The position numbers were made by a program, and so were the translations under genes. The notes below the pieces were generated by a model, which saw only the letters and a list, made by a program, of their open reading frames with translations, did no database searches and was not told where the DNA came from. A DNA stretch of 64,000 bases from Deltaproteobacteria bacterium (GTDB taxonomy: Bacteria; Bdellovibrionota; UBA2394), in assembly GCA_017302715.1 (NCBI GenBank), contig JAFLCD010000003.1:83154-147153 (forward strand), in the 5' to 3' direction. The stretch's first letter is position 1. Every line of letters starts with the position of its first letter. Below are positions 12,213 to 31,113 of the stretch, one piece after another.

Positions 12213-12216
12213 AAGT

Positions 12217-15091: not shown

Positions 15092-15118
15092 GTTTAATTA
15101 AAGGAAAGTGAGAACACT

Positions 15119-16312
15119 GTGGAAAGAGAAGACGAAAAAGCTATTTCACCAGATATGTTGCCTGATAATTCCTCGCTAACTCTTCAGGTGCTTTTAAAAA
15201 CGATGCTTGAAAAAGGTGCGAGCGATTTGCATATAACTGCTGCAACGCCTCCTGTTCTGCGAGTGGATGGAATTTTGATTCCGTTAAAGTTGCCGGCGTT
15301 GAGTCCGACGGATTGTAAGCGTCTTTGTTACAGTATTTTAACCGACTCTCAAAAATCTCGATTTGAAGAAGATAATGAACTCGATCTTTCGTTCGGTATG
15401 AAAGGTCTTGCTCGATTTCGTTGCAATCTTTTCGTGCAAAGAGGTGTGGTGTCTGGTGCATTTCGACAAATTCCATTTAAAATTTCTACACTTCAAGAGC
15501 TTGGAATGCCTCCTATTGTTGGCGAACTTTGTGAGCGTCCCCGGGGGCTCATTCTTGTAACCGGACCAACAGGTTCTGGTAAATCCACAACTCTTGCCGC
15601 AATGATCGATAAAATTAATCGTGAAACTCATCAACATATTTTAACGATTGAAGATCCAATCGAGTTTTTGCATCCTCACAAAAGTTGCATCGTCAATCAG
15701 CGCGAAGTAAATGCAGATACCGAAAGTTTTACGAAAGCACTCAAATACGTTCTTCGACAAGACCCTGATGTGGTGATGGTGGGAGAACTTCGAGATCTCG
15801 AAACGATTGAAGCGGCACTTGCGATCGCAGAAACCGGTCACTTATGTTTTGCGACTTTGCACACAAACTCAGCTCTTCAAACCATTAATCGGTTAGTGGA
15901 TGTTTTTCCTTCACATCAACAGCCACAAATTCGTGCTCAGCTTTCATTCGTTTTAGAGGGAATTATTTCACAAACTTTAATCGAAAAAGCTTCAGGCGTG
16001 GGACGAGTGATGGCCTATGAAGTTTTAATTCCTACGCCTGCGATTCGAAATTTAATTCGCGAAGATAAAGTTCATCAAATTTATTCGCAAATGCAAATTG
16101 GTCAGGGCAAGCATGGAATGAACACGCTCAACCAGTCTCTTGTTCAACTTTATCAACGTCGCATGATCACGATGGATCAAGCACTCTCTTGCAGTAGTGA
16201 TCCTGAAGAAGTTCGTACGATGATTATGAATCAAGGCGGTGGAGTAACTGCCAATGGAATGCCTGGCGGACAAACAGCTAGAGCAAAAGCAGAAGGTACA
16301 AAGAAAGGATAA
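15119..16312 (+). CDS. pilT: twitching-motility retraction ATPase PilT (with N- and C-terminal extensions)
   Basis: Walker A (GPTGSGKSTT), PilT-type motifs and AIRNLIRE. GTG start after an AAGGAAAG RBS. 397 aa is longer than typical PilT. Confidence 0.85.
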   Translation: MEREDEKAISPDMLPDNSSLTLQVLLKTMLEKGASDLHITAATPPVLRVDGILIPLKLPALSPTDCKRLCYSILTDSQKSRFEEDNELDLSFGMKGLARFRCNLFVQRGVVSGAFRQIPFKISTLQELGMPPIVGELCERPRGLILVTGPTGSGKSTTLAAMIDKINRETHQHILTIEDPIEFLHPHKSCIVNQREVNADTESFTKALKYVLRQDPDVVMVGELRDLETIEAALAIAETGHLCFATLHTNSALQTINRLVDVFPSHQQPQIRAQLSFVLEGIISQTLIEKASGVGRVMAYEVLIPTPAIRNLIREDKVHQIYSQMQIGQGKHGMNTLNQSLVQLYQRRMITMDQALSCSSDPEEVRTMIMNQGGGVTANGMPGGQTARAKAEGTKKG

Positions 16313-16315
16313 TCT

Positions 16316-17536
16316 ATGGCGCTTTATAAATGGGAAGGTGTCGCTCGAAATGGACAAATCAAATCGGGAACTAAGGAAGCACCTACAGAAGCAGCGATGC
16401 TTCAGTTTCTTCGCTCGCAACAGATTCGTCCAAAAAAACTTTCAGCTGTAAAAACGGGTGGCTTAGGTGGCTTCAATTTTGCTTTTGGCAGCGGCGTTTC
16501 ACAGAAAGAGCTTGTCGTTTTCTCTCGTCAGTTCGCGACGATGATTGATGCAGGTCTTCCTCTTGTTCAATGTTTAGAAATTTTGGGAAATCAGGCAGAA
16601 AATCCTGCGTTTAAAAAAGTAATCAAAGGAGTTCAGGTCGACGTTGAAGGCGGTAGCACTTTTGCCGATTCACTCAAAAAATATCCGGATGTCTTTGATT
16701 CTCTCTATGTGAACCTTGTGGCCGCTGGAGAAGTGGGCGGTATTCTCGACGTTATTTTACAAAGACTTTCGGCTTATCTTGAAAAAGCTGCGAAATTAAA
16801 AGGCCAAGTAAAATCGGCGATGGTTTATCCTATTGCGATTGCTGGGGTCGCCGTTTTAGTTATTACCGTTCTTCTTGTTTGGGTTATTCCTATTTTTGAA
16901 AATATGTTTAAAGAATTTGGTGGCGCCGCACTCCCAGCCCCGACTCAAATTGTTATCAATTTAAGTAAATGGACTCAGCATAATTTTATTTTTCTCGTTA
17001 TGTTTGGAGTGGGGATGATCTTTTTGTGGAAGTGGATCAGAAAAAATCCACGTACGCTTGAAATCACAGACGACATTTTCTTAAAGCTTCCAATCTTTGG
17101 TCCGCTCATTCGAAAAGTTGCTGTTGCAAGATTTACGCGAACTCTTGGAACGATGATTTCTTCGGGGGTTCCTATTCTCGAAGCTCTTGATATTACCGCG
17201 CGAGCTGCCGGAAATAAAACTGTTGAGAAAGCAATTTATAGAGCTCGACAAAGTATCTCTGAAGGTAAATCGGTTGCGGAACCTATTGCGCAGAGCAAAG
17301 TATTTCCGCCGATGGTTTGTCAGATGATTAACGTCGGAGAACAAACCGGTGCTCTCGATACGATGCTTGGAAAAATCGCGGACTTTTACGATGAGGAAGT
17401 AGATGCCGCGGTAAAAGGCCTAACGAGTTTGATGGAACCTGCGATGATGGTGATTCTTGGGGGAATCATCGGGGGACTCGTTGTGGCGATGTATCTTCCT
17501 ATCTTCGAATTGGCAGGAAATCTTAAAGCGGGTTGA
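16316..17536 (+). CDS. pilC: type IV pilus inner-membrane platform protein PilC (GspF family)
   Basis: 406 aa with two GspF repeats and 3 TM segments, positioned after pilB/pilT as in canonical loci. Confidence 0.9.
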   Translation: MALYKWEGVARNGQIKSGTKEAPTEAAMLQFLRSQQIRPKKLSAVKTGGLGGFNFAFGSGVSQKELVVFSRQFATMIDAGLPLVQCLEILGNQAENPAFKKVIKGVQVDVEGGSTFADSLKKYPDVFDSLYVNLVAAGEVGGILDVILQRLSAYLEKAAKLKGQVKSAMVYPIAIAGVAVLVITVLLVWVIPIFENMFKEFGGAALPAPTQIVINLSKWTQHNFIFLVMFGVGMIFLWKWIRKNPRTLEITDDIFLKLPIFGPLIRKVAVARFTRTLGTMISSGVPILEALDITARAAGNKTVEKAIYRARQSISEGKSVAEPIAQSKVFPPMVCQMINVGEQTGALDTMLGKIADFYDEEVDAAVKGLTSLMEPAMMVILGGIIGGLVVAMYLPIFELAGNLKAG

Positions 17537-19119
17537 TGATGCGAGAACGAATTAAATGGTTGATGACGTTTCGTGTTGCCTTCGTGCTTGTCATGGGGGC
17601 AACAGGTGCTGCCTTGCAATCGGTCTATCATGATCCGATTGCAGCGGAACTCATTTTTCTTTTGAAAGCTGGAATCGGATTTAGTTTAATTGCGATTCCT
17701 AGCTTTTATTTTTTGAAAAATTCTAGGGCCATTTCAATTCATGCCTGGACTCAAATTATTTGGGATATCGGATACACAAGCGCACTTGTTTACGTCACAG
17801 GTGGACTCTATTCGACCTTCATCATGCTCTATGCAATTCATATCTTACTGACGGCTTCAGTTTTTCTTTCAAGGGGTGCTTTGGTGGCTGGCGCTATTTC
17901 AGCTTTAAGTTTGATAAGCGTTGGCATTTTTCAAGTTGGAAAGCAAATTTATTTAGAACCCAATTTATTTTCGAGATCTCTTTTTAGTGCAAGCGCTCTG
18001 CTTTTGTTTGGAGCCTTCGTAGCATTTTTATTTAAAAATAGAGAGCAACTCGCGAAAAATTTAGAGAAAACTTCCGCCGATCTTAAAGGCTTAAATGATT
18101 TACATTCAGCTATTGTGGACCACGTTCCCTCGGGAATTTTATATTCGGATGCCCATGCCAATGTTCAACTGATGAATCAGGCGGCTCTTCAAATTTTAGA
18201 GCGATCTTATGTGGGAGAAAATCTTAAACGTTCAAATATCGAATTCTTAATTAAAAGCGATGGTCGATTTGAATCAGACTTTAAGAGCGAAAAGTCTCAA
18301 AAAATAATCGGACATCATTTAACCAAATTGCCTAACGGCGGTTGGGTCATTGTATTTCAAGATGTAACTCAGATTCGTGAGCTTGAAACAAAAGTTCAAC
18401 TTCAAGATAAACTTGCAAGCGTTGGGCAGCTAGCCGCAGGGATCGCACATGAAATTCGAAATCCTTTGGCGAGTTTGAGTGGATCGATTCAGCTTTTAAA
18501 ATCTGAAATGTCGATTAAAGAATCTTCTGACAAACTTATGAAAATTGTTTTGCGAGAGACAGATCGCTTAGATCACTTACTCCAAAGCTTTTTAAATTAT
18601 GCGAAGCCTTCGCATCTTCAATTAGAGAGAATTAATGTCTCTGAATTCGTGGATGAAATTCTTAGTCTCATTAAAAATCAGCCTGCGATTCAGTCGCATA
18701 AAATTTCAATTAAAACGAGTATAGATAAAAATTTATTTTGCTTTGTCGATCCTCGACATCTTAAGCAAATTTTTTGGAATCTTATAAAAAACTCAATTGA
18801 AGCGATTCGTGAGAGCGGCGAGATTTTGATTAAGGCGAGTGAGCGAGATCACGATGGTGAAGCGATGATTGTGTTTTCTGTTGAAGATACGGGCGCTGGA
18901 ATTAGCAAAGAAATTTTAGACAAAGTTTTTGATCCGTTCTTTTCTACAAAGGATTCAGGAACAGGACTCGGTTTAGCTTTGGTATATCAGTTGGTGAAAT
19001 CTCATTCAGGTCAAATGGGTGTGGAGAGTGAACCAACTCGCGGAACAAAATTTTGGTTTGCTTTATTGAAAGATGGACCTGCTGAAGAACGTTCTCTCTC
19101 AGCAGCGTCAGGAGGGTAA
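17533..19119 (+). CDS. pilS: sensor histidine kinase PilS-like (polytopic N-terminus, HisKA, HATPase)
   Basis: About six N-terminal TM helices, H-box (AAGIAHEIRNPL), and G1/G2 boxes (EDTGAGIS, GTGLGLAL). ATGA overlap with pilC; sits upstream of the sigma-54 regulator. Confidence 0.75.
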   Translation: MMMRERIKWLMTFRVAFVLVMGATGAALQSVYHDPIAAELIFLLKAGIGFSLIAIPSFYFLKNSRAISIHAWTQIIWDIGYTSALVYVTGGLYSTFIMLYAIHILLTASVFLSRGALVAGAISALSLISVGIFQVGKQIYLEPNLFSRSLFSASALLLFGAFVAFLFKNREQLAKNLEKTSADLKGLNDLHSAIVDHVPSGILYSDAHANVQLMNQAALQILERSYVGENLKRSNIEFLIKSDGRFESDFKSEKSQKIIGHHLTKLPNGGWVIVFQDVTQIRELETKVQLQDKLASVGQLAAGIAHEIRNPLASLSGSIQLLKSEMSIKESSDKLMKIVLRETDRLDHLLQSFLNYAKPSHLQLERINVSEFVDEILSLIKNQPAIQSHKISIKTSIDKNLFCFVDPRHLKQIFWNLIKNSIEAIRESGEILIKASERDHDGEAMIVFSVEDTGAGISKEILDKVFDPFFSTKDSGTGLGLALVYQLVKSHSGQMGVESEPTRGTKFWFALLKDGPAEERSLSAASGG

Positions 19120-19122
19120 CAC

Positions 19123-20616
19123 ATGAGTGCAAGAATACTTGTCGTCGACGATGAATTAAGCGTACGAGAATTTTTCGAAATTCTTTTAGCTAAAGAGGGT
19201 TATGAAGTCGTTACGGCTTTAGATGGAAGTGATGCCCTTCGGCTTTTGAGAGAACAAAGTTTCGATCTCATCATCAGTGATCTTCAAATGAAGGGCGGAG
19301 ATGGGATGACGTTACTTCGCGAATCTAAAAAATTTCAGAACGAAGTTCCTGTGATTATGATTACCGCTTTTGCAACTACAGATTCAGCAGTTGAAGCAAT
19401 GAAAGCTGGAGCTTTTGATTACGTCAGCAAGCCTTTTAAGATTGAAGAAATTAAAGTGGTGATTCAACGAGCTCTCAATACAAAAACATTGGTCGTTGAA
19501 AATCGAAATTTAAAATCTGAATTGCGCGATAAATATGATTTTTCTAATTTGCTTGGTGAATCTGAGCCAATGAAAAATGTTTACGATCTCATTCGCAAAA
19601 CTTCTCCTACTCGTACCAATGTTTTGATTTGGGGAGAGTCAGGAACGGGTAAGGAGCTTGTGGCCAAAGCCATTCATTTTAATTCTCCTCGAAAAGAAAA
19701 GCCTTTTATGACGGTGAACTGTGGCGCCATTCCTCAAACGTTGATTGAGAGCGAACTTTTTGGTCATGAGAAAGGCTCTTTTACAGGAGCGAGTGCTTTG
19801 AAGGCTGGACTTTTTGAAGCAGCACATAAGGGCACTATCTTCTTGGATGAAATCGGAGAGCTTCCTTTGCCGATGCAAGTAAAATTACTTCGCGTGATCC
19901 AGGAGAGATGTTTTCATCGTGTGGGCGGAACAGAGAGTATTGAAGTGGACGTTCGTATTATCGCGGCCACTAATAAAAACCTCGAAGAAGAAGTCAAAAA
20001 AGGAAACTTTAGAGAAGATTTATTTTATCGATTGAATGTCATTCAGATTCAACTTCCGCCACTTCGGTTGCGAAAAAAAGATATTCCACTTTTGTCGGAG
20101 CATTTTCTTAGAAAATTTGCCAAAGAGACCGGAAAGGATGTTCGTAAAATCAGTCCAAAGGCCATGGAACTTTTAATGGCCTATGATTATTACGGAAACG
20201 TTCGTGAACTCGAAAATATTATCGAGCGCTCTGTTGCTCTTGAACCAGGAAATGAAGTTCAATCTGAATCTTTGCCCGGCAATGTCATTCATCCCGAGCA
20301 AAATCGCGAAAAATTTTCACTCAAAGAAGCCGAACTTCATTTTGATCAGGGTGGAGTAGCTTTAGACAATTTAGTCGATGCATTTGAAAAGGATTTACTT
20401 TTAAAAGCTCTCGATAAATCTCATGGCTCACGTTCTCGCGCAGCTAAACTTTTAGGCATTTCGAGTCGGTCGATGCGATACCGCCTCAAAAAGCACCTTA
20501 TAGGCGGCTACGACGACGAGGACTCCCTACTAGACGTTTCTGTGGATGGGAGCGAAAATGAAGGTGTACTTCGAACAATGAAGCTGGAAGACTTTTCTAA
20601 GGAAGGAAAAGGCTAA
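19123..20616 (+). CDS. pilR: sigma-54-dependent response regulator PilR (NtrC family)
   Basis: Receiver domain with the phospho-acceptor Asp region, AAA+ sigma54-activation domain (GESGTGKELVAKAIH) carrying a GAFTGA-like loop (GSFTGA), and a C-terminal HTH. Confidence 0.85.
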   Translation: MSARILVVDDELSVREFFEILLAKEGYEVVTALDGSDALRLLREQSFDLIISDLQMKGGDGMTLLRESKKFQNEVPVIMITAFATTDSAVEAMKAGAFDYVSKPFKIEEIKVVIQRALNTKTLVVENRNLKSELRDKYDFSNLLGESEPMKNVYDLIRKTSPTRTNVLIWGESGTGKELVAKAIHFNSPRKEKPFMTVNCGAIPQTLIESELFGHEKGSFTGASALKAGLFEAAHKGTIFLDEIGELPLPMQVKLLRVIQERCFHRVGGTESIEVDVRIIAATNKNLEEEVKKGNFREDLFYRLNVIQIQLPPLRLRKKDIPLLSEHFLRKFAKETGKDVRKISPKAMELLMAYDYYGNVRELENIIERSVALEPGNEVQSESLPGNVIHPEQNREKFSLKEAELHFDQGGVALDNLVDAFEKDLLLKALDKSHGSRSRAAKLLGISSRSMRYRLKKHLIGGYDDEDSLLDVSVDGSENEGVLRTMKLEDFSKEGKG

Positions 20617-21204
20617 TTGAAAAAGTTTCACTCTCTTTATAGCAAAAGTATTATTGGATTTACGTTGATCGAGTTAATGATCACGGTCGCGATCATTGCA
20701 GTTTTATCGGCCATCGCGATTCCCGTTTATACGAGTTATATCCGTCGCTCGTATTTGTCAGAAGCGACAACTTCGATTTCTGCGATCAAATCAGCCGAAG
20801 AAAGTTTTTTCACGATTAACAATTGTTATATCGAGGCGCTTGCTCATCCGGCGACTGTTCCCGCTGGTGTATCGGTTTCTTGGGATTCGTCGACCTTTTC
20901 TACACCCAATTCTTGGGCTCGAAACGCATTGGGAGTTCGACCTGATAAAAATGTTCGATTTCAATATCAAGTTTACGCTTCTAATTCCCTATCGGGCGGT
21001 GGATGCGGCAGTTCTCCAACGGCAGTTCCCGCAACTTTAGGTTGCGTGGCAAATGCCCAAACCGTTTTTGCTAACGCAGCTCTTTTTCCAAGTAATTGGT
21101 ATATTGTCGTCGCTCGAGGTGATTTAAATGGTGACAATACTTCTTCTACCATCATTTCTGGGATAGATGACTCTCAAATTGTCATGTGTAATGAGCTTCA
21201 ATAA
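20617..21204 (+). CDS. pilA: type IV pilin (prepilin, N-methylation site G|FTLIELM)
   Basis: TTG start immediately after the pilR stop, preceded by an AAGGAAGGAAAAGG RBS. Leader ...SIIG then [23 protein letters not shown]-terminal Cys pair. Confidence 0.8.
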   Translation: MKKFHSLYSKSIIGFTLIELMITVAIIAVLSAIAIPVYTSYIRRSYLSEATTSISAIKSAEESFFTINNCYIEALAHPATVPAGVSVSWDSSTFSTPNSWARNALGVRPDKNVRFQYQVYASNSLSGGGCGSSPTAVPATLGCVANAQTVFANAALFPSNWYIVVARGDLNGDNTSSTIISGIDDSQIVMCNELQ

Positions 21205-21216
21205 TCTTCTTATTAA

Positions 21217-23121
21217 ATGGTGAAAAAGAGTTCTCGATTTCTTTATTTTTCTATTATTTTTGCAGGATTTTGTTTGGCCGCGATTTTGCGCATGTCGAAC
21301 TACTCTTTTGTTTTTCAAAATATCACCGGCCATCTTAACTTCATCGACCCGGATTGTTTTTATCAATTGAGACGTCTCGTTTATTTCTTAGCGAATTTTC
21401 CGCAGACCTTGCATTTTGATCCACTCGCCGATTGGCCCGCAGGTTCATTCGTCGACTGGCCAGATGCCTTTATTTATCTCATCGGCGTGCCACTTAAATT
21501 AATGGGGGTTCGAGATTTTAGAAGTCTCGAAATCGGATCCTGCTTCATGATGATTTTTTACGGTCTCGTCTGTTGCTTTGCTATTTTTAGATTGGCCAAG
21601 CGTCTGATTCCGGATTCTTCGATCGCGCTTCTTGTTTTCTTTTTATCGACGATGAATTTTTTACTGATTCGATTTTCTTGCTTAGGACAACTCGATCATC
21701 ATATTTTTGAAGCTATCTATCCGCCGGTGGTTTTGCTTTTAAGTTTAAAAGCTTTTCAGGACTTCTCTAAGGGATCGAGCGTTTTTCTTGGACTTCTTCT
21801 TTCACTCGCCTTGATGACGAGTTCTTCGAGTATTTTTATCGTCGGAGTGTTTTTTGCCATTTATGGATTTATTCTTGGCAAGAAAGAGAATTTTAAACTT
21901 TATTTTTTAACGGTAGGTTTAACTTTCGCAAGTCTTTTGCCGGCGGCCGTTTTGAACTTGATGGCCTTTGGACGATTTCAAATGATGGAACATCCGTCTT
22001 TTTTTCACATCGGCTTGGTTTTGGTTCTCGCTCTCTTCGCATACCTCGTTGCGAGATTTAAGTCGCAGGCTCCCGCAATTCTTTTAGGTTTCTTCGCTCT
22101 TTTTCTTATTGGCTATGCCCTCAATTGGCCGAGCCTCCTTATGCAGCCGCTTGCCCAAGGATTCGAATATGTATTTGGCCGCTCCGGAGTTTTACAAAAT
22201 GTTTCAGAGGCCTCACCTATTTTTCTGAATTACAATCAAGTTCAACTTAATTTTATTCATCTCAATTTTGGATATTTTGTTTACCTACTTCCGTTGGCTT
22301 GGGTTTTTGGCTTGTTCTATAAAAAGTTCTCCGTTCAAGAGAGAGTTTTGTTTTTGTCTCTGACGATGCTTTCGGCGCCTGGAATTTTTCAAAAAAGATT
22401 TGCGCATATTATGCTCGGCCTCTTTTTAGTTTTCGTCGGTTGGTGCCTTTGGAAAACTCTGGAGGCCTTTAAGCGATGGAAATTTCGTATTGGTCCTTTG
22501 CTGATTTTTACTCTTTTTTGTTTGGCGATTTTTCCCACTCTTCAATTTGGTTTTGCTCCTTCGGGAACTCCTCGAGATCTCGTCGATCTTAATGCTACGA
22601 AATTTTTTCTAGAGCGGCTTAAGCCTGAGGAAAAATCAGATCTCATTGTTTGGGATAGATTGGCGCTTAAGAGAAAAGTTACCGAAGGTATTTGGGCCAA
22701 CCCCAATCTCGGCCATATGCTCAATTATATGACTGGCTACGGAGTGCTTACGAATAGCTTTTATCATTGGGATAGCTTTGATAAAGATTTTAAATGGAGG
22801 TCCATTGAATCGGATTATGATTTCGTGCAGGCCTTAAAAGAAAATAAAATTCGATTTTATATTTTAGCGGATGATTTTAGATTTTTTCAGCTTCAATACC
22901 GCTTAAGAAATCTGGATCCAAAATCTTTTGTAGAAAATAAAGTGATCGATGGCCAAATGGCCACCGTCTTTAATATTCCAGAATTAGAAAAAAAGGTTTG
23001 GGTGCGAAGATTGATTCGAGAAGAAACATTTCCGGATTCTGAGAAATTATTTCAGGTGAAATTTAATACGGATCATTTTTATAATTATCTCAAAGCTTAT
23101 CGATTTACGGCGCTACCTTAG
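21217..23121 (+). CDS. polytopic membrane protein, GT-C-fold glycosyltransferase candidate with STT3/AglB-like first-loop motif
   Basis: 634 aa with at least 11 predicted TM helices. The first extracytoplasmic loop carries IDPDCFYQLRR (compare the D-x-D...Y..R loop of STT3/PglB/AglB and acidic loops of ArnT/PMT). C-terminal soluble domain of about 190 aa; no clear WWDYG. Confidence 0.45.
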   Translation: MVKKSSRFLYFSIIFAGFCLAAILRMSNYSFVFQNITGHLNFIDPDCFYQLRRLVYFLANFPQTLHFDPLADWPAGSFVDWPDAFIYLIGVPLKLMGVRDFRSLEIGSCFMMIFYGLVCCFAIFRLAKRLIPDSSIALLVFFLSTMNFLLIRFSCLGQLDHHIFEAIYPPVVLLLSLKAFQDFSKGSSVFLGLLLSLALMTSSSSIFIVGVFFAIYGFILGKKENFKLYFLTVGLTFASLLPAAVLNLMAFGRFQMMEHPSFFHIGLVLVLALFAYLVARFKSQAPAILLGFFALFLIGYALNWPSLLMQPLAQGFEYVFGRSGVLQNVSEASPIFLNYNQVQLNFIHLNFGYFVYLLPLAWVFGLFYKKFSVQERVLFLSLTMLSAPGIFQKRFAHIMLGLFLVFVGWCLWKTLEAFKRWKFRIGPLLIFTLFCLAIFPTLQFGFAPSGTPRDLVDLNATKFFLERLKPEEKSDLIVWDRLALKRKVTEGIWANPNLGHMLNYMTGYGVLTNSFYHWDSFDKDFKWRSIESDYDFVQALKENKIRFYILADDFRFFQLQYRLRNLDPKSFVENKVIDGQMATVFNIPELEKKVWVRRLIREETFPDSEKLFQVKFNTDHFYNYLKAYRFTALP

Positions 23122-24245
23122 GGCGTGCTTACGGACTTAGTTTTCGTAGCATCATAAATAAAATATCCACCCACTCCCGCTAAAACGGCAACACCTGTCC
23201 AAAACCAAGGAGATTCAAAAATAGAACTTTCGCTTCGATCTTCATTTATCTGACTGTCTTTAGAAAAATCTTTAGCCCACGCAGTCGAAGGATCAGAAGG
23301 TTCTTTTAAAATCGAGCCCATTTGAGCCTGAGAGATAATAAGAGGAACAGCTTGGTTGCTTTCATCCCGAATCATAACGGCAATTCCCGCTGCTCGACTG
23401 AGATCTGTCGGCCGCGTGGCAATTAAATTTTCTTGCAGTTTTCGATGCTCGATATTTTTCCAAATAGATCGGTTCCAAATTTTGTCAAAGTGAGTTTCAT
23501 TTTTGCTAACCGTAAGCCAATAAGCTTGAAGTTCATCTCCATCGAGTAGATGAATTAAAAATTTTCCTTCTGTTAATTCAAGAGGCAAAGCTTTCTCTCG
23601 CCCGTTAATGAGAATTCTTTGTGCAAAATGAGAAGTCGTGGGCGATGGTAGTTGAATTTTATATTTGATATTTTGGTTTTGCTTAAGTTCCGACTGCAAT
23701 TTTGTAGAAAGTCGTGCTGCAAATGCTGGCTCTCCAAAAAATCCACGCACCTCTGGTGAAACTTCGTTGAGTCCTTCCTCGGCATCCCCAATCATTCTTT
23801 GCAGGGCTGCAATCTCGACCAAATCCTCAAATGTTTTTGGATAAGGCATGCTTTGACTGATCAATTGTCTCGCTTCGTTGAGTGAGGATTGCGCATCGGC
23901 GTAACGCAATTCTAAATAAAGCTGTGAAGCACGCTTTATTTTGCTCTCGATGGTCTCATCGTTTTCATCCTTTATTTTGGTTCGATCCAAAGATGAAAAG
24001 AGCGGAACTCGGCGATAAAATCCACTTAACCAAAGGTCTTCGTCTTTTTTAGATAGAGGTAGTCCAACCAGCGATGAAGCCTTTTCATCATGGGGGTTGA
24101 TGAGATAAGTTTGTGCATAGAGATTTTGAAGGGACAAAATGCAAAAGATTATGGCGCTGATGAGGCCTCTAAAAAGCTTATTAAATAAAGAACTAAACCC
24201 TATTTTCATGCTGCGGGTTCTCGCCTGGCAACAGAAGGAAGTCAA
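23118..24245 (-). CDS. secreted protein with conserved C-terminal 'WFW' Gly-rich transmembrane anchor (paralogue 3)
   Basis: 375 aa with a signal peptide. C-terminus: ...FESPWFWTGVAVLAGVGGYFIYDATKTKSVSTP. Same tail architecture as 8359..9657 and 9654..10478. Confidence 0.5.
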   Translation of the reverse strand: MTSFCCQARTRSMKIGFSSLFNKLFRGLISAIIFCILSLQNLYAQTYLINPHDEKASSLVGLPLSKKDEDLWLSGFYRRVPLFSSLDRTKIKDENDETIESKIKRASQLYLELRYADAQSSLNEARQLISQSMPYPKTFEDLVEIAALQRMIGDAEEGLNEVSPEVRGFFGEPAFAARLSTKLQSELKQNQNIKYKIQLPSPTTSHFAQRILINGREKALPLELTEGKFLIHLLDGDELQAYWLTVSKNETHFDKIWNRSIWKNIEHRKLQENLIATRPTDLSRAAGIAVMIRDESNQAVPLIISQAQMGSILKEPSDPSTAWAKDFSKDSQINEDRSESSIFESPWFWTGVAVLAGVGGYFIYDATKTKSVSTP

Positions 24246-25259
24246 GTGAGCATGAAGAAACCTTTGGGGCTTATTTTAGCTGGGGGGCAATCTAAACGGC
24301 TGTTTCCGGTAACCGTTCCTAAACCGCTTTTAAAGGTAAATGGAATTAGTTTACTTGAGCAATCCATTCGCAGATTGAAGGGATTCGATGTCTATATCGT
24401 AACGAATGCTCAAATCGCTGAAGAGATTCGCAAGGCTTTTAGAGCCGACAGAATAAAAATTCCCTCCTTTATTATAGAGCCTGAAGGTCGAGATACCGCC
24501 GCGGCCGTGGGTTATGGAATCCGAATGGCTGAAAAAAAACGAAAGCATCCTTGGGTGGCGGTGTTGAGTGCAGATCAATGGATGCCAGACGATAGAAATT
24601 TTTCAAAATTTTTAAAAAATATGCAGTCGGAGATTCAGAAATTTCCTGATGCTCTTTTTGTGGGCGGAAGTTCCGCTTCGACGAAAGCTCCTCATTCGCA
24701 TTCTCAGTTTGGTTGGATTGCGCCACAAAGGACCGAAAAGAATTCCAGTGCGGTGAAAAAATTTGTGGAAAAACCCAAAGGAACTCTGCTTCAAAAAATG
24801 CGAAAGTCTAAAGCACTCATCAATGCCGGAATGTTTTTTGGACGGCCTGAAGTTTTTTTAAAAGCTTATCAGAAGTTTTATCCTGAGATTTTGAGTGCCA
24901 CTCCAAAAAATTATTATCAATTAAAACGCCAACCGATTGATCGCGCGATTTTTGAAAACTACTCAAAGGTGCGAGTCATTGCCTTGCCCATGCGATGGGA
25001 AGATTTGGGAACTTGGGAGGATTGGTTTACGAATGTAGGTACGCAAGTTTCGACTAAGAATTCTGTGAAATCAAAAAAGATGAAGGTCAGCACGGGCGCC
25101 CAGATCCGCTGTAAAAAAGTTTTGATTTCGGCAGATGAAGATTTTGAAATTTTCGGATTTGATTTAGAAGATTTGGCCATTATTCAATCAGGCTCAAAGC
25201 TGCTTGTGATGCCGCTTTCCAAGACTCGAGATTTAAAAAATTATTTGGAGAATTTATAA
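24246..25259 (+). CDS. mannose-1-phosphate guanylyltransferase (NTP-transferase domain)
   Basis: N-terminal nucleotidyltransferase motif (LILAGGQSKRLFPVT..PKPLL). Length and layout match the GMP domain of type II PMI/GMP enzymes. GTG or ATG start. Confidence 0.75.
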   Translation: MSMKKPLGLILAGGQSKRLFPVTVPKPLLKVNGISLLEQSIRRLKGFDVYIVTNAQIAEEIRKAFRADRIKIPSFIIEPEGRDTAAAVGYGIRMAEKKRKHPWVAVLSADQWMPDDRNFSKFLKNMQSEIQKFPDALFVGGSSASTKAPHSHSQFGWIAPQRTEKNSSAVKKFVEKPKGTLLQKMRKSKALINAGMFFGRPEVFLKAYQKFYPEILSATPKNYYQLKRQPIDRAIFENYSKVRVIALPMRWEDLGTWEDWFTNVGTQVSTKNSVKSKKMKVSTGAQIRCKKVLISADEDFEIFGFDLEDLAIIQSGSKLLVMPLSKTRDLKNYLENL

Positions 25260-25600
25260 TGGATTGGACGGAGGAGCGCCCTTGGGGACGATTCAAAAAC
25301 TTATTGGATGTCGATTTTACCAAAGTCAAAATCATCGAAGTCGATGCAGGTAAGCGTTTAAGTTATCAATCTCACACTAAGCGCCGAGAATCGTGGACAG
25401 TCGCAAAGGGTGAAGCCGTCGTTATTTTAAATGACAAAGAAATCTTTTTAAAAGTAGGCGAGCATATCGATATTCCCTTGGGCGCAAAACATCGTCTTGA
25501 AAATCGAAGTTCAGAAAAGTTGAGCATCATCGAAGTTCAAACCGGAACTTATTTTGGAGAGGACGATATCAAGAGATATCAGGATGATTGGGGGCGTTGA
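25259..25600 (+). CDS. cupin domain protein = C-terminal mannose-6-phosphate isomerase (type II) module, separate ORF
   Basis: 113 aa. ERPWG...YQSHTKRRESWTV..GEAVV...IP.GAKHRLEN...IEVQTG.YFGEDDIKRY matches the C-terminal cupin of bifunctional ManC. TAATG junction with the preceding ORF. Confidence 0.7.
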   Translation: MDWTEERPWGRFKNLLDVDFTKVKIIEVDAGKRLSYQSHTKRRESWTVAKGEAVVILNDKEIFLKVGEHIDIPLGAKHRLENRSSEKLSIIEVQTGTYFGEDDIKRYQDDWGR

Positions 25601-26510
25601 GCGCTCGATTTTTAGAATCTCGAAATCCTCTTTTAAATTCTTTTGCCCAAATTAGATTCAATTGAAAAATTTTGAAAAAATTAAACAAGATCTCTTTTAA
25701 GTAAAAAGATTTTAACTTAATACTACGAGACAAAATCGCAGAAAAAAAAGCGAGTCCTAAAAATTTTCCAAAAATTTTAAATCTTTTTTTAGGTGTAATT
25801 TTAAATTCTTTTGGTAGGTCTCCATCGTAAAATCCTCGCCAGTAACCCATGAACCTTGCTTTTTCTAAAATATTTTCTTTTTTGATGAGGTGAGCCGTAT
25901 GCGTGATAGAGAGCTCTGGGATATATCGAATTTCACTACGAAGATTAGGTAAGTCTTCTATTGTCTTTAAAAATCCGATATCTTCGCAGGCCAACCAATC
26001 TGACCGAAAGCCTCCCACTTGTTTAAAAAAACTTCGCCGAATAAGTAAATTGCCACTATGTAAAAATCGGAGAGATTGATTTTGAGAACTTAGAAATTCA
26101 TGAAACTCCATCAAATGAAGCGCAAAAGCCCAAGAAAATTTGAGATCTTCGAAATGTACGCCTCCATTAAATGCAATCCAGTTGGGATATTTTTTTGTAA
26201 GTATTTGAGCTGTTTTCATCCAATCTGCATTCCAAATGCAATCGCTATCTAAAAAAGCAATCCATTGATTAGTCGCTTGAGACGCCCCAAGGTTCCTTGC
26301 TTCTCCGGCAAACATTCTTCGATTGGGAAAGCTAAATTTGACTCGGTCTTTATATTTTAGAAGTTCGCTGTCAAGATTTTTAGATGATGAGTCGACAACT
26401 ATGATTTCAACTATATCCTCCGATTGAATTTGATTTAAGACAGAATCAATGCATCGAGAAAGAATATATGTAGGGGTTTGAAATGAGGGAATGACGACGG
26501 ATAAGTTCAT
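25569..26510 (-). CDS. glycosyltransferase family 2
   Basis: N-terminal GT-A motif (LSVVIPSFQTPTYILSRCIDSVLNQ) and DSD motif (FLDSDCIW). Confidence 0.7.
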   Translation of the reverse strand: MNLSVVIPSFQTPTYILSRCIDSVLNQIQSEDIVEIIVVDSSSKNLDSELLKYKDRVKFSFPNRRMFAGEARNLGASQATNQWIAFLDSDCIWNADWMKTAQILTKKYPNWIAFNGGVHFEDLKFSWAFALHLMEFHEFLSSQNQSLRFLHSGNLLIRRSFFKQVGGFRSDWLACEDIGFLKTIEDLPNLRSEIRYIPELSITHTAHLIKKENILEKARFMGYWRGFYDGDLPKEFKITPKKRFKIFGKFLGLAFFSAILSRSIKLKSFYLKEILFNFFKIFQLNLIWAKEFKRGFRDSKNRALNAPNHPDIS

Positions 26511-26575
26511 AAACTACAATCAAAATCTTAAACGGGTTATCAATTAGAAAACAATCATGAGTTAAGTAGTGAATA

Positions 26576-27424
26576 ATGAAATCATCTCCAAAATTTTCTT
26601 TAGTTTTATGTACGGTTGGTCGAGAGCTAGAGCCGATCAAGCTTTTGAAGTCTCTATCAAATCAGAGCTACAAGGAATTTGAATTGATTATTGTGGATCA
26701 AAACGAAGACGAGCGAATTTCGAATGTTCTTCGTGCCCATTCATTTCCATTCAAAATTATTTATATAAAAAATCAGAGAGGGCTATCTAAATCAAGAAAT
26801 GTTGGCTTGAAGCATATTTCTGGAGATGTCGTAGCTTTTCCAGACGATGATTCTTGGTATCCCGAGAATTTGTTGAAGGAAGTGGAGAAATGTTTTTTAA
26901 ATGATCCCGCTACCGATGGATTTATTGGTCTTACTGTAGACGAAAAAAATATTCCTTCTACAGGATGTCGTGATACCAACTCCTCTTTGGTCACGCGTTT
27001 TAGTCTTCTCAGAATGTCTGTTTCAAATAGTATTTTTTTAGGAAGGCAAATCATTAAGACCGTGGGAGACTTCGATGAGACCTTAGGTATTGGTGCCGGC
27101 ACGCCCTGGGGAGCTTCGGAAGAGACAGATTACTTAATTCGAGTGTTTGATGCAGGATTTGTATTACATTTCAATCCTGATATTAAAATTTTTCACCCTC
27201 AAATATTTCTTAGTTACGATCAAAAATATTTAGAAAAAGCCTTTTCATATGGAGCGGGCTTCGGACGAATCTTAAGGAAGCACCGGTATCCTTTAGGGTT
27301 TATCGCGTGGAAACTTTTTAAAACATTTGGAGGATGTGTTCTTGCGGTATTGAGATTTAAAATCCCACTTGCTAAATATTATCTTTATTCTTTTCGCGGG
27401 CGATTGAAGGGGGTGATTTCATAA
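26576..27424 (+). CDS. glycosyltransferase family 2
   Basis: FSLVLCTVGRE...LLKSLSNQSYKEFELIIVDQN and a DxD region (FPDDDSWY). Confidence 0.7.
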   Translation: MKSSPKFSLVLCTVGRELEPIKLLKSLSNQSYKEFELIIVDQNEDERISNVLRAHSFPFKIIYIKNQRGLSKSRNVGLKHISGDVVAFPDDDSWYPENLLKEVEKCFLNDPATDGFIGLTVDEKNIPSTGCRDTNSSLVTRFSLLRMSVSNSIFLGRQIIKTVGDFDETLGIGAGTPWGASEETDYLIRVFDAGFVLHFNPDIKIFHPQIFLSYDQKYLEKAFSYGAGFGRILRKHRYPLGFIAWKLFKTFGGCVLAVLRFKIPLAKYYLYSFRGRLKGVIS

Positions 27425-28600
27425 TTTTGGGTTATTTAAAAATCCCATGGTCTTAAATGCTAATTGAAATCGTTGCTTCCAGGTATGGTCTCTTAAGCAT
27501 CGTTCCCGGCCCTTCGAGGCAATTCTATTTCTTAGAGAATCATTTTTTAAATAAAAGTTAATTTTATCTACGAGCTCTTCTCTATTTTTATAGCATTCAA
27601 TCTCGCTTCCTATTTTAAAAAATTCTTCAAGTTCTTGCATATACTCTACTAAATAAAAACCTCCTGACATTGGAACTTCAAAATCTCTTAAGCGAATTTG
27701 CAATATTCTTTGATCGCCTTGCAAATCTCCCACACTAGAGAAACCGAGGTTGATTTTCGATTTACTGAAAGTTTTTACTACGTCCGTATCCGAAAGGACC
27801 CCACCTAAATATTGAGCAGGAATATTTTTAAATTTTTCTTGAATGAGATTGCTCTTACTAAAAGTGTAATTTTTTACAAAACGAATTAAATCTTTTGGTA
27901 ACGATAAAACGGAAAATTCTCTTAAAATTTTTTTAAAGTATCGGTTTGTCTTAGTAATAAATCTTGAATCTAAGTTTTTCCAACCGTAGCCAAAAACAAA
28001 TGTCGGAATTCCCTGACTAAATAAATATTTTATTAAATTTGGCCTTTCTCCATAGCATTGACCAACAAAGGACACATCGTATTCTTTTGGCAAATCATAA
28101 GGTTTATAAAAATTTTCGCTTGCAGCTTCTTGGCAGTAAATGGGATTGGCGCCCAAGGCGCGATAGTCGTCCAATCTAAATTTTTCTGGGACTAGGCACC
28201 AATCATAAATGGGGGAGATCTCTGAAACTAAGTCTAATTGATATGAGGCATTGCAATACCAATTCACTGTTTTAATTCTTAGGTGCTTAATCTCTTCAAT
28301 TGTTTCTTTAGTGATGCAAGCATCATAAAAATAGCTGAAAAAGAGATCGATTCTATCTTTTCTGTGATGGTGAGAGATTTGTTTCAAAATTGCTTCACTC
28401 ACAACAGGCCTATTCTTCTTTATAAATTTCATTTGAATTGCATCAGATTTATCTAAGTTAGAAAAAGTTGCTGCAAGGTCGTAGTCGAATTCAATTACTT
28501 CATGCCCCATTTCAACCAGGGAATTAAATAAATTATTTCTCCATATATTGGAATGTATGGCCGAATTAGGAGAACGATCCGAGGCATAAAAAATTCTCAT
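27419..28600 (-). CDS. CgeB-family (DUF3880 / Glyco_trans_1_2-like) glycosyltransferase candidate
   Basis: The C-terminal region (RLRDFEVPMSGGFYLVEY...ECYKNREELVDKINFYLKND..R..IA..GRERCLRDHTW) resembles the CgeB spore-maturation glycosyltransferase family. Confidence 0.45.
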   Translation of the reverse strand: MRIFYASDRSPNSAIHSNIWRNNLFNSLVEMGHEVIEFDYDLAATFSNLDKSDAIQMKFIKKNRPVVSEAILKQISHHHRKDRIDLFFSYFYDACITKETIEEIKHLRIKTVNWYCNASYQLDLVSEISPIYDWCLVPEKFRLDDYRALGANPIYCQEAASENFYKPYDLPKEYDVSFVGQCYGERPNLIKYLFSQGIPTFVFGYGWKNLDSRFITKTNRYFKKILREFSVLSLPKDLIRFVKNYTFSKSNLIQEKFKNIPAQYLGGVLSDTDVVKTFSKSKINLGFSSVGDLQGDQRILQIRLRDFEVPMSGGFYLVEYMQELEEFFKIGSEIECYKNREELVDKINFYLKNDSLRNRIASKGRERCLRDHTWKQRFQLAFKTMGFLNNPKL

Positions 28601-28621
28601 AAGAATTCTCTTGGTGACATG

Positions 28622-30352
28622 CTATAAATTTTCTTCGTTGTGTTCTAAATGGAATTCAATTTTCTCTGAACAAGAATGAATCACTTCTTCTTTATGAGAG
28701 ACGATAATAAGTGTCTTGTGCCCGACAAGCGCTTTTAATTCTGAAAGAATTTCTTTTTCAGTTTTGGTGTCAAGTCCCGCTGTTACTTCATCAAGAATTA
28801 AAATCTTTGGATCGAAATAAAGTGCTCTAGCGAGCCCCAATCGTTGACGTTGACCTCCTGAAAATCGAATGCCTTTATCGCCAACCAAAGAATTTAAGCC
28901 TTCCGGAAGAGATTTGACATAGTCATACAAGCGAGCACCAGCTAAAGCGCTCCAAATTTGCTTATCATCATGCTCTCCACATTCGATGCCAAAAGCTATA
29001 TTTTCTCGAACGGTTCCATCTAGGACAAAAACTGTTTGTGAAACGTAACCGATATTTTTTCTCCAAGAATTAAGATCATCAAAAATATTTAAACCAGCCG
29101 ATAAAATTTTGCCCTCCGAGGGCTCAAGTAGCCCCAAAAGCAAATTAACCATTGTAGACTTTCCGGAGCCAGACGGTCCAAAAAAGGCGACCGCATGATT
29201 TTTTTTTATCGTATGGGATAAATTTTTTAAAATAAATCGGTTGGTGTTTTTATAGCGAAATGAAATATTTTGAATTTCAATTTCGCTATCAAACTTTAAT
29301 TTCAAGTGATCTTCCTTTGGTCGGTCATATGAAATTTTTATTTGATCTAGCTCTCTTTGCAAAAACTCAATTGATGGTTGGAAAAAAGAAACTTGATTTA
29401 CGCAAGAAATGAATCTGCTGATAGATGGCATAATACGATAGGCAGCAGCTATGAAAAGTCCAAGAATAGGAATTGGCGACTCATTACCTCCACTTCTAAT
29501 AAAAATGATTAAAGATATAAAAAGTGCACCACCAATCATAATTATTTCCATCAAAGGCCGCGGCAACTCGCCTAATACACGCATTTTACGTACAGAATCC
29601 GAATGATCATCTACGGCGGCGGAATATCTTTTGAAGAAATATTTTTGGCTACCGAATATCTTTACTTCTTTGATTCCGAGAAAAGTCTGATCAATCCATT
29701 TATAGATTAAAAAACCTTCGCGCTGGGCCCTTGCTCCTGAATTTGCTAGTTTTCTATTCACATAAAAATAATAGACAAAAAGAAAACCGAGAAGAACGAG
29801 GGCCACAATAATAGTGGATGTGCCACTGACTATGAGCAGAAGAGCAAATATCATAATGACGGTAAGTGCTTCATTTATGAGAGAAAGAATTGGCCATAGA
29901 ATGCCATCAAATATATTTGTCACTTCAAGCTCAATAGTTCTGGAAAGTCGATGAGTTTCGCGTTCTAAATGAATCATGTAGGGCGCATGAATATAAGCCT
30001 TCATAAAACGCTTAGAGAGAGAGTTTCGTTCCTCCGAAACCCATCGAGTTTGGCGATCTATGATAAATAATAAAAAAATATTTTTTGTTAAATATAAAAC
30101 TAAAAGCACTAAACTTAAAGTAAGAAGGGCGTGGTGCTGGAAAAAGGGAATAGAAATTCTGTTAACTCGCTCATACCAAGGAGAATTTTGAATATCATTC
30201 ATCTGACTAATGAAACTAATCAGAGGTAATAACAGGCTCATCACTACTATCTCTAAAAATCCAGAGATAGAAAAGAAGAAGAGGAGAAGTAAGATTCTTC
30301 TTTTAGCTCGAGTGTCCAGAATGTGCCAGAGTTGGCTTACTAATTTTGCCAC
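28622..30352 (-). CDS. ABC transporter, fused permease/ATPase (MsbA/PglK-like type I exporter)
   Basis: 576 aa with six N-terminal TM helices. Walker A (GPSGSGKST), signature (LSGGQRQRLGLARAL), Walker B (ILILDE). Confidence 0.85.
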   Translation of the reverse strand: MAKLVSQLWHILDTRAKRRILLLLFFFSISGFLEIVVMSLLLPLISFISQMNDIQNSPWYERVNRISIPFFQHHALLTLSLVLLVLYLTKNIFLLFIIDRQTRWVSEERNSLSKRFMKAYIHAPYMIHLERETHRLSRTIELEVTNIFDGILWPILSLINEALTVIMIFALLLIVSGTSTIIVALVLLGFLFVYYFYVNRKLANSGARAQREGFLIYKWIDQTFLGIKEVKIFGSQKYFFKRYSAAVDDHSDSVRKMRVLGELPRPLMEIIMIGGALFISLIIFIRSGGNESPIPILGLFIAAAYRIMPSISRFISCVNQVSFFQPSIEFLQRELDQIKISYDRPKEDHLKLKFDSEIEIQNISFRYKNTNRFILKNLSHTIKKNHAVAFFGPSGSGKSTMVNLLLGLLEPSEGKILSAGLNIFDDLNSWRKNIGYVSQTVFVLDGTVRENIAFGIECGEHDDKQIWSALAGARLYDYVKSLPEGLNSLVGDKGIRFSGGQRQRLGLARALYFDPKILILDEVTAGLDTKTEKEILSELKALVGHKTLIIVSHKEEVIHSCSEKIEFHLEHNEENL

Positions 30353-30459
30353 TACAATTCATCCCTAAAAAATTTAAAATACCTCTTTCTAAAATTTAAG
30401 CCAAGCTTGTCTATAGTTTGAAACAACTTTGCTAATTCAGCCAAATTCAGTTTACTAAG

Positions 30460-31110
30460 TTGATGAAAGTTCATCTTGGTTGTGGGGACCGTTATTTAGA
30501 TGGATACCTAAATATTGATTTGCCAACTAGTGATCACAGCGTGATGACTCAGTTAAAAATTGATAAGATTGCAAATGTAACTGAGTTATCTTTTCCCAAA
30601 GTTTCGATACAAGAAGTTCGCCTTCATCATTTGTTTGAGCATTTCAATCGCCCGCAATCTTTTGCTTTTATAGCTGCATGGCGGTCATGGCTAGTCCCTT
30701 TTGGCCTTCTTCGAATTGAAGTTCCTGATTTTAGGCGCACTGCTTGGTCAATTCTTTCTCCATTTTCTTCTTCAAAGACTAAAATGACAGGCATTCGACA
30801 TCTATTTGGATCTCACGAGTCTTCATGGGCCATTCATTGTGAGGGTTGGACCGTTGCTTCTCTGACAGATTTGCTAAAAGCTTTTGATTTTAAGATTATC
30901 AAGTGTCAAAAAAACTCTTGGAAGCATACTTACAATTTTGAAATTTTTGCAATTCGTTCTGAAAAAGAAATAAGTCTAGAAATGGCCTGTCAGATAGCAG
31001 AAAAAAATCTTAAAAATTATTTAGTCGACTTCACTGATTCTGAAGTGAAAATGCTGGCGGTATGGAAGAAAAAATTTCAAGAAACAGCAGTAAATTGCTG
31101 GGGAAAATAG
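30460..31110 (+). CDS. hypothetical protein, possible class I SAM-dependent methyltransferase-like
   Basis: N-terminal VHLGCGDRYLDGYLNID and later LHHLFEHF resemble methyltransferase motif I and post-I. Weak. Confidence 0.3.
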   Translation: MMKVHLGCGDRYLDGYLNIDLPTSDHSVMTQLKIDKIANVTELSFPKVSIQEVRLHHLFEHFNRPQSFAFIAAWRSWLVPFGLLRIEVPDFRRTAWSILSPFSSSKTKMTGIRHLFGSHESSWAIHCEGWTVASLTDLLKAFDFKIIKCQKNSWKHTYNFEIFAIRSEKEISLEMACQIAEKNLKNYLVDFTDSEVKMLAVWKKKFQETAVNCWGK

Positions 31111-31113
31111 ATC

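Follow-up and report, generated by a model that had tools for sequence, protein, structure and literature searches.

The gene that directly follows the type IV pilin gene pilA1 in a 64,000-nucleotide stretch of the metagenome-assembled genome (MAG) of a predatory bacterium of the Bacteriovoracaceae, Bdellovibrionota (contig JAFLCD010000003.1, hereafter the window) encodes a 634-aa membrane protein of the STT3/AglB lineage, here called STT3L (21217..23121, + strand). Its membrane domain carries the catalytic residues of oligosaccharyltransferases (OSTs), whereas the motifs with which these enzymes read the acceptor sequon (N-X-S/T) are missing from STT3L and from its whole family. We put the probability at roughly 55% that STT3L is a pilin glycosyltransferase acting in the periplasm, which would draw on a polyprenyl-monophosphate donor and modify a non-sequon site on PilA1 and/or on PilA2, the second pilin encoded in the window. 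As for every functional statement below, we infer this from the comparative genomics of uncultured genomes.

Lineage and catalytic residues of STT3L

The initial annotation of the window had placed a GT-C-fold membrane protein of 634 aa at this position, and the open reading frame (ORF) call agreed with it; the NCBI copy of the identical protein (P0001), named 'hypothetical protein' in a MAG labelled Deltaproteobacteria bacterium, is 633 aa long, with a GTG start one codon later. In the AlphaFold2 (AF2) model of STT3L (pLDDT 91.4, pTM 0.90), 13 transmembrane (TM) helices (aa 7-444) precede a periplasmic, globular alpha/beta domain of ~190 aa (aa 445-634; 22549..23118, +), which represents a minimal AglB-type core. 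Thus, the protein is polytopic and its soluble C-terminal domain has the size that had been proposed, but the model holds 13 TM helices and not the 11 that had been given as a minimum. The N-terminus (MVKKSS) and the short K/R-rich loops 219-227, 279-286, 365-375, and 417-427 lie on the cytoplasmic side, and the DPD, DHH, E331, and QKR elements described below are predicted to be periplasmic. Two outcomes had been named beforehand as contrary to the annotation: a DPD loop facing the cytoplasm, which is at odds with this topology, and confident homology to a non-glycosyltransferase family, which was not found.

The NCBIfam model TIGR04154 (archaeo_STT3) matched STT3L with E = 2.7e-28 over aa 14-408, at a score (98.8 bits) below the curated cut-off of 450 bits. 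A Pfam scan of STT3L alone returned no match even at E ≤ 10, the STT3 (PF02516) and Wzy_C models included, and a single-sequence phmmer search against the PDB was marginal (E = 0.37). When a profile was built from 20 members of the family (alignment A1), its sole match in the PDB was AglB of A. fulgidus (AfAglB; 5gmy/3waj; E = 1.7e-20). Of the profile checks suggested with the annotation, that with Pfam STT3 matched five members out of 20 (cut-off E ≤ 0.01, lowest value 7e-9) and that with PMT_2 gave weak matches to three, the STT3L of the window not among them; Wzy_C, ArnT, and DUF2723 matched none of the 20. An identity as O-oligosaccharyltransferase of the PglL/TfpO type (Wzy_C) was rejected on these grounds, as was an ArnT or DUF2723 identity, and none of PMT, ArnT, and PMT_2 was the best profile or fold match of STT3L. 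Structure prediction and fold comparison, likewise suggested, ranked AfAglB first (Foldseek, E = 6e-18, TM-score 0.75), followed by yeast and human STT3 (~1e-12), PglB (1e-9), and the C-mannosyltransferase DPY19 (7e-8). Structural matches were also obtained to the short AglB paralogues of A. fulgidus, of which the C-terminal domains are available in isolation (3vu0, 3vgp), and STT3L shares with these AfAglB-S proteins its short overall size. The annotated kinship with STT3/AglB is therefore borne out by sequence profiles and by structure: STT3L belongs to the STT3/AglB lineage, with a resemblance far beyond chance. Together with PglB, we take this lineage to be CAZy family GT66.

The motifs of STT3, AglB, and PglB and their roles have been compiled previously (Taguchi et al, 2021; PMC8342417). 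Residues of STT3L were paired with those of AfAglB (AfAglB-L; PDB 3waj/5gmy/7e9s) by a residue-level hidden Markov model alignment, and invariance was read from A1 and from an hmmalign table of 165 relatives. The first DXD motif, in external loop 1 (EL1), is D44-P45-D46 (21346..21354, +); it lies in the string FIDPDCFYQLRRL, which is present as annotated, and D46 is invariant and corresponds to the catalytic, metal-binding D47 of AfAglB. Within 'DPDxxYxxRR', the wider pattern that had been likened to the acidic motif of OSTs, D46 and R52 (21370-21372, +; aligned with AfAglB R53) are invariant, but neither D44, which is glycine in some members, nor the second arginine of RR is. The second DXD motif, in EL2, is D160-H161-H162 (21694..21702, +), identical to the metal ligands D161-H162-H163 of AfAglB, and E165 is invariant as well. 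The TIXE/SVSE-type motif in EL5 reads N328-V329-S330-E331 (22198..22209, +) at the place of T357-I358-A359-E360, with E331 invariant and equivalent to E360. At the periplasmic end of TM11/12, Q392-K393-R394 (22390..22398, +) corresponds to Q424-N425-R426; R394 is invariant and equivalent to R426, and the arginine at this position is presumably the lipid-phosphate ligand in OST structures. D46, DHH, E331, and R394 are 100% conserved across the ~45 family sequences, the identity of which ranges from 50% down to 26%. Judged by these residues, the catalytic centre of the membrane domain is intact.

This conservation bears on the notion of a catalytically dead STT3 relic that assists in pilus assembly or acts as a chaperone of pilins. 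Such a role would agree with the loss of the acceptor-binding motifs (see below) and with the pilin accessory proteins of unclear function that are common downstream of pilA (PMC11841053). However, both the invariance of the metal-binding and catalytic residues and of R394 in even the most distant sequences and the co-conservation of a dedicated lipid-sugar synthase speak against it, and we regard it as very improbable.

The family is rare. To delimit it, 1.84 billion cluster representatives were searched exhaustively with the profile, and the matches fell into three score tiers: ~30 full-length representatives above 350 bits (clusters at 50% identity), proteins of ~600 aa at ~160-180 bits carrying 'PPNxG', and ordinary AglB-like proteins of 700-800 aa, many with a non-canonical xWxxG. 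In a set with one genome per GTDB species, every family match was a MAG of the Bacteriovoracaceae/Bdellovibrionota. Nothing relevant on the family was found in the literature searched. The second-tier proteins (P0049-P0064; loci L016-L018) form a sister clade in which 'PPNxG(N/S)' stands at the WWDYG position and R52 is replaced by His. Their contexts are mixed, one following a pilin gene (L016), one the gene for a protein with a MYXO-CTERM-like tail (L017), and one that for a repeat protein, so we do not extend the pilin link to this clade. The tail in question (GCGC...RRR) resembles the MYXO-CTERM sorting signal, which hints at Myxococcota.

Sequon-reading motifs and candidate acceptor sites

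In OSTs, WWDYG and the DK/MI motif together form the pocket for Ser/Thr at position +2 of the sequon (PMC8342417). WWDYG is absent from STT3L, as had been noted in the annotation, and from all of the ~45 family members. Its position was set by a MAFFT alignment with WWDYG-bearing AglB-like proteins and by hmmalign of the 165 relatives; where AglB and STT3 have WWDYG(H/N/Y), STT3L reads N495-P496-N497-L498-G499-H500 (NPNLGH, 22699..22716, +; NPNLG, 22699-22713), 'xPNxGH' in the family, with P496, N497, and G499 invariant in A1 and H500 conserved. The string LIVWDRLAL (aa 476-484), previously put forward as the closest to WWDYG, belongs to an upstream helix and is not its counterpart, which is N495-P496-N497-L498-G499. 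A DxxK or MxxI counterpart of the DK/MI motif was not found in the alignment with the WWDYG-bearing proteins, in which the family has a deletion after a conserved ...LADDF. Neither DGGK nor DNXTZNX[T/S] was found in STT3L; the DGGK position reads T512-N513-S514-F515 (TNSF; 22750-22761, +), of which only N513 is nearly invariant. D552-D553 (22870-22875, +) are conserved.

As the catalytic motifs are kept while WWDYG is replaced and DK/MI is deleted, the catalytic half of the OST is intact and the sequon-reading half rewritten. STT3, AglB, and PglB are defined by the membrane catalytic site and the WWDYG/DK-MI pocket, of which the STT3L clade keeps the first and drops the second. The label 'minimal OST' is disfavored because STT3L fails the acceptor-side motifs that define a classical N-OST; it is described more accurately as a divergent member of the STT3 family whose specificity has changed for the acceptor and probably for the donor as well. 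If the pilin proposal holds, STT3L shows how the acceptor specificity of the OST fold can be rewritten, which would be useful to glycoengineering, a field limited by the sequon restriction. A further 110 more distant AglB-like metagenomic proteins (P0056-P0165) keep D, DHH, E, and R; many of them are non-canonical at the WWDYG position (SWDHG, PWDLG, SWEMG, RWQLG, TWGFG, and others), and degenerate sequon-pocket motifs may thus be widespread in uncharacterised STT3 homologues.

The pilins encoded next to STT3L fit the loss of WWDYG and DK/MI. Three of nine PilA1 orthologues, and the PilA2 of locus L007, contain no N-X-S/T at all, the PilA1 of the window contains a single one (N-T-S), and no N-X-S/T position is kept in the alignments of PilA1 and PilA2. 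The sequon-free pilins, taken together with the missing pocket, argue against a classical sequon as the acceptor site. By analogy with TfpW and TfpO, a Ser/Thr acceptor is as possible as Asn. AglB, the closest relative, differs from STT3L on several counts: STT3L has xPNxGH for WWDYG, TNSF for DGGK, no DK/MI, and sub-threshold profile scores; it is bacterial (Bdellovibrionota) and tied to type IVa pilin genes, and its cognate pilins often lack N-X-S/T. Archaeal AglB itself glycosylates type IV pilins and archaellins (PMC5131992).

In a more specific form, the proposal reads that STT3L represents an STT3 branch that has given up sequon reading and transfers mannose (arabinofuranose in the case of a paralogue, see below) from polyprenyl phosphate to a site other than N-X-S/T on pilins, by means of the xPNxGH loop and in a linkage that may be O-linked or atypically N-linked. 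We hold this version tentatively, at somewhat less than even odds. The clade would then be a natural intermediate between OSTs and DPY19/PMT-type mannosyltransferases and, to our knowledge, provide the first example of an STT3-family enzyme whose activity is not that of an OST. With DPY19 and PMT, STT3L would share, beside the GT-C fold, the transfer of a single mannose from polyprenyl monophosphate to protein and the locus logic leading from GDP-mannose via a lipid-P-mannose synthase to the GT-C enzyme. Unlike both, it keeps the OST catalytic motifs; its similarity to PMT is marginal (the weak PMT_2 matches above), no member matched Pfam DPY19, and the structural scores for DPY19 were lower than those for AglB/STT3. 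The acceptor motif of DPY19 is W-x-x-W. By eye, no such motif was apparent near the Trp that is conserved in the pilin alignment, no dedicated search for it having been made.

Alternatively, STT3L could be a classical N-OST that transfers pre-assembled oligosaccharides en bloc to Asn residues of proteins in the periplasm, pilin among them, with NPNxGH as a divergent sequon reader. The D46/E331 pair and the TIXE/SVSE-type motif are kept, the closest relatives are AglB proteins, N497 places a hydrogen-bonding side chain where WWDYG has its Asp, and the window PilA1 does offer its one N-T-S. On the other hand, both motifs of the Ser/Thr pocket are missing family-wide and several cognate pilins are devoid of a sequon; considering also the donor genes described in the next section, we find this alternative unlikely.

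Sugar donor and glycan genes

Within the window, just one enzyme charges a lipid carrier with a sugar, a DPMS/AglJ-like glycosyltransferase of family GT2 with four C-terminal TM helices (34327..35415, +). It matched TIGR04182 (AglJ, 5e-40), the haloarchaeal dolichyl-phosphate (Dol-P)-hexose transferase model (2e-27), PpgS, and ArnC (9e-14), and, in the PDB, the Dol-P-Man synthase of P. furiosus (5mlz; 3e-18), which also ends in four TM helices. These matches and the TM tail identify it as a probable polyprenyl-monophosphate hexose synthase. No initiating phosphoglycosyltransferase of the Bac_transf or MraY type was found in the 64-kb window. The sugar that this GT2 loads is probably mannose; what points to GDP-mannose as its substrate is the neighboring split ManC (24246..25600, +), which consists of a mannose-1-phosphate guanylyltransferase (24246-25259) and a mannose-6-phosphate isomerase C-terminal cupin (25259-25600). 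As suggested by its matches (Pfam NTP_transferase, 1e-25, and MannoseP_isomer, 3e-27; TIGR01479 GMP_PMI, 7e-31), this pair would supply GDP-mannose.

Wherever a locus extended far enough to reveal it, an AglJ/DPMS-like GT2 (59-74% identical across loci) was present, and with the exception of L007, L023, and L025 these loci also had the split ManC. In two minimal loci, L013 and L020, the GT2 was the only glycosyltransferase detected beside STT3L, as determined by tblastn with the window proteins and, for L013 only, by Pfam/NCBIfam scans of the inserts. In L010 (Bacteriovoracaceae MAG CAZRLF010000008.1), a second, 601-aa STT3L paralogue (33% identical, HPDLAH at the WWDYG position) is encoded in the same pil locus behind genes for a UbiA-HAD fusion (decaprenyl-phosphate phosphoribosyltransferase, 2e-42), DprE1 (2e-105 in NCBIfam, 1.5e-69 in the PDB), and DprE2 (2e-58; whole cluster, 12315-17729). 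These three make up the polyprenyl-P-arabinofuranose (DPA) pathway, the donor pathway of TfpW. Taken together, the co-conservation of GT2 and ManC, the minimal loci, the lack of an initiating enzyme, and the L010 paralogue argue that the clade uses polyprenyl-monophosphate sugars. Euryarchaeal AglB likewise uses monophosphate lipid carriers primed by an AglJ-type GT2; if the proposal holds, this archaeal-style pairing of AglJ and AglB exists in bacteria. A tandem STT3L paralogue was also seen in L023 (11083-12939).

The comparison with TfpW was invited both by the DPA genes and by the annotation, which had offered 'minimal/divergent OST or TfpW-like' as alternatives. TfpW is encoded directly after pilA and has YX6PFX7P in periplasmic loop 4, a C-terminal TPR domain, and associated DPA genes (bioRxiv 10.1101/2020.04.19.049825); in P. 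aeruginosa, tfpO and tfpW are both located immediately downstream of pilA. STT3L shares with TfpW the gene position, the polytopic GT-C architecture, a first periplasmic loop with an acidic motif, and a C-terminal domain on the periplasmic side, as well as, known for TfpW and inferred for STT3L, a polyprenyl-monophosphate sugar donor, the L010 paralogue clustering with the same DPA genes. It differs in its STT3 fold and motifs and in the predicted sugar, which is mannose or another hexose instead of arabinofuranose. DPA biosynthesis genes were not found in the window. TfpW homology was rejected: a regular-expression search of STT3L found neither YX6PFX7P nor YX6PX5P, and its C-terminal domain is of the mixed alpha/beta AglB type, without TPR. 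What stands of the earlier alternatives is the divergent STT3 enzyme and the genomic, and probably the functional, niche of TfpW; what falls is homology to TfpW, along with the minimal OST. If the pilin proposal holds, STT3L would be the third unrelated family, after Wzy_C-type TfpO/PglL and TfpW, to arrive at the solution of a glycosyltransferase encoded right after pilA.

Between ManC and pilA2, the window contains a variable glycan-assembly island (25569..33401, both strands; GC 0.35 versus ~0.40). It comprises three GT2 genes (25569-26510, -; 26576-27424, +; 32289-33401, +), a GT1-like gene (27419-28600, -), a GT4 gene (31114-32292, +), the gene for an ABC exporter of the PglK/MsbA type (28622-30352, -; PglK-like match 5e-84), and a 216-aa ORF (30460-31110, +), methyltransferase-like by eye only and without a family match. 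The island is absent from L013 and L020 and different in L001, L005, L008, and L010, and this variation among related loci suggests glycan diversification. In the AglJ/AglG/AglI/AglE pathway of Haloferax, a glycan is elaborated on a hexose-P-lipid primer; by analogy, the island may do the same here. The PglK-like exporter and the five further glycosyltransferases are what the N-OST alternative can claim on the donor side. Its donor could be a polyprenyl-monophosphate glycan of the euryarchaeal type, with the AglJ-like GT2 priming it, the island glycosyltransferases elongating it, and the exporter acting as flippase. This alternative has against it the minimal loci, in which neither an elongating glycosyltransferase nor an exporter was detected, and the coupling of the L010 paralogue to the donor pathway of a lipid-linked monosaccharide. 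Campylobacter PglB is comparable to STT3L as a single-subunit bacterial enzyme of the STT3 family, and the window has a PglK-like exporter and glycosyltransferases nearby. In contrast to STT3L, however, PglB has WWDYG and MI and uses an undecaprenyl-diphosphate-linked heptasaccharide started by PglC, and no such initiating enzyme is encoded in the window.

The pilin locus and its neighborhood

PilA1, the presumed acceptor substrate of STT3L, is a type IV prepilin (20617..21204, +; leader MKKFHSLYSKSIIG followed by FTLIELM; Pfam N_methyl, NCBIfam PilA). Its stop codon and the STT3L start are 12 nt apart, which confirms the annotated position directly downstream of pilA; as this spacer is too short for a terminator, both genes are almost certainly cotranscribed. 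A promoter/terminator scan returned matches at chance level and added nothing beyond the spacing. Synteny was determined by tblastn of the window proteins against fetched loci, complemented by gene tables. The conserved order is pilBTCSR, pilA1, STT3L, unk375 (convergent), split ManC, variable genes, pilA2 (one to three copies, opposite strand), GT2, IDH, and DsbD, and STT3L follows pilA1 in at least 15 distinct loci (the window, L001, L005, L008-L013, L015, L020, L023, L025, L026, and L028). PilA2 of the window (33459..34058, -; Pfam N_methyl, 2.6e-9) is closer to the Myxococcus PilA model (NF041775, 2e-17); it is encoded by one to three copies in relatives and is the pilin adjoining STT3L in the most divergent loci (based on L007, L013, L016, and L025). 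The most divergent member, that of L007 (26-29% identical), lies outside a pilBTCSR cluster, in an array of abutting genes for an AglJ-like GT2, STT3L, and PilA2, and the second-tier member of L016 directly follows a pilin gene. Thus, the association with a pilin gene is conserved over many loci, rearranged ones included. Between genomes, the pil machinery is 75-90% identical (pilS, 40-51%), STT3L 32-48%, and PilA1 ~50% (tblastn), which means that STT3L diverges as fast as its presumed substrate.

An ORF of 310-316 aa is inserted between pilA1 and STT3L in L005 (9087-10034), L010 (7026-7976), L013 (7044-7994), and L020 (4710-5642), and none is present in the window. In L005 and L013, it belongs to the family of NAD-dependent epimerases/GDP-mannose-4,6-dehydratases, to which those of L010 and L020 were assigned by position and size only. 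With the epimerase-type insert, a modification of the transferred sugar may be suspected for the genomes concerned.

A GT2 polyprenyl-P-sugar synthase paired with a GT-C enzyme is the hallmark of three-component periplasmic systems (PMC11127046). STT3L could accordingly be imagined to transfer side-chain sugars from polyprenyl-P-hexose to O-antigen, capsule, or lipid A, the pilin next to it merely reflecting inherited gene order. The GT2 synthase is encoded together with the GT-C enzyme (directly adjacent in L007), the island contains polysaccharide-type genes, and Wzm/Wzt-like genes follow in L008. Difficult to reconcile with this idea are the retained AglB-type, peptide-binding C-terminal domain, the distance of only 12 nt to pilA, and the recurrence of the pilin link in the rearranged or distant loci L007, L016, and L025. 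We consider it doubtful, and less probable still than an N-OST.

For STT3L as a pilin glycosyltransferase, the following route is proposed. GDP-mannose would be provided by ManC, and the DPMS-like GT2 would place a hexose on polyprenyl monophosphate at the cytoplasmic face of the membrane. The lipid-linked sugar would then be flipped, by a flippase that was not identified in the minimal loci; this part might be taken by the four TM helices at the C-terminus of the GT2 or by the PglK-like ABC exporter, which in the window could translocate a longer glycan assembled by the island glycosyltransferases. Finally, STT3L would move the sugar or short glycan from its polyprenyl-monophosphate carrier to PilA1 and/or PilA2 before the pilus is assembled. 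The likely role would be surface diversification or masking of the pilus; as the case of pilin glycosylation in P. aeruginosa suggests by analogy, the modification could protect against phage, and it might affect prey contact in predatory bacteria. Type IV pili of Bdellovibrio-like predators are needed for predation and prey invasion. If the proposal holds, it points to glycosylated pili in such predators, for which no precedent turned up in the literature searched.

Several points weigh against this proposal. All STT3L sequences derive from MAGs or metagenomes. As the synteny was observed for the most part within a single bacterial family, pilin adjacency may in part be inherited gene order and not functional coupling; in L003 (P0017), STT3L adjoins the sugar genes NeuB, Maf, and PIG-L, and there is no pilin within 10 kb, a lack that also suits a three-component system. 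The pilins do have invariant W, N, and S residues, yet none was singled out as acceptor, and as the D46/E331 pair is retained, the equivalent of which activates the Asn amide in OSTs (PMC8342417), the acceptor may yet be an Asn in a different context. On the donor side, the product of the GT2 could carry another hexose in place of mannose, the island glycosyltransferases and the PglK-like exporter may equally belong to an unrelated polysaccharide pathway, and no family of GtrA-type flippases was seen in the Pfam/NCBIfam scans of the ORFs tested (≥60 aa).

Downstream of STT3L, unk375 (23118..24245, -), recognised by synteny, is convergent with it and overlaps it by 4 nt. The gene evolves fast and adjoins STT3L in all Bacteriovoracaceae loci; its product consists of a signal peptide, a part in the periplasm, and a TM anchor at the C-terminus, SPWFWTGVAVLAGVGGYF, which is strongly conserved. 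The protein had no family match in Pfam/NCBIfam scans and only two homologues by word-indexed search, and its AF2 model (pLDDT 42.5) was unusable. In L008, an HNH-domain gene (12045-12947) lies between STT3L and unk375, and the window contains an HNH endonuclease gene at 39328-40404 (-); mobile-element traffic may occur around the pilin/glycosylation region.

Upstream of pilA1 are, all on the + strand and as read from ORFs and translations, pilB (13376-15091), pilT (15119-16312), pilC (16316-17536), pilS (17533-19119), and pilR (19123-20616). This block (13376..20616) encodes the motor, platform, and two-component regulator of a type IVa pilus and has the same order, with Pfam labels, in relatives. 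A sigma-54-like -24/-12 element, TGGCATGACTTATGCT, was located at 34151-34166 (-), 108 nt upstream of the pilA2 start, window-wide matches to the pattern being at chance level, and a similar element precedes pilA2 in L001. No such element was found before pilA1, a gene that directly adjoins the stop codon of pilR. Further upstream, pilB is preceded by the genes for a Ser/Thr protein kinase (10479-12212, -) and RibF (FAD synthetase; 12172-13146, +); the RibF-pilB junction is kept in L005 and L008, the kinase in L008 only.

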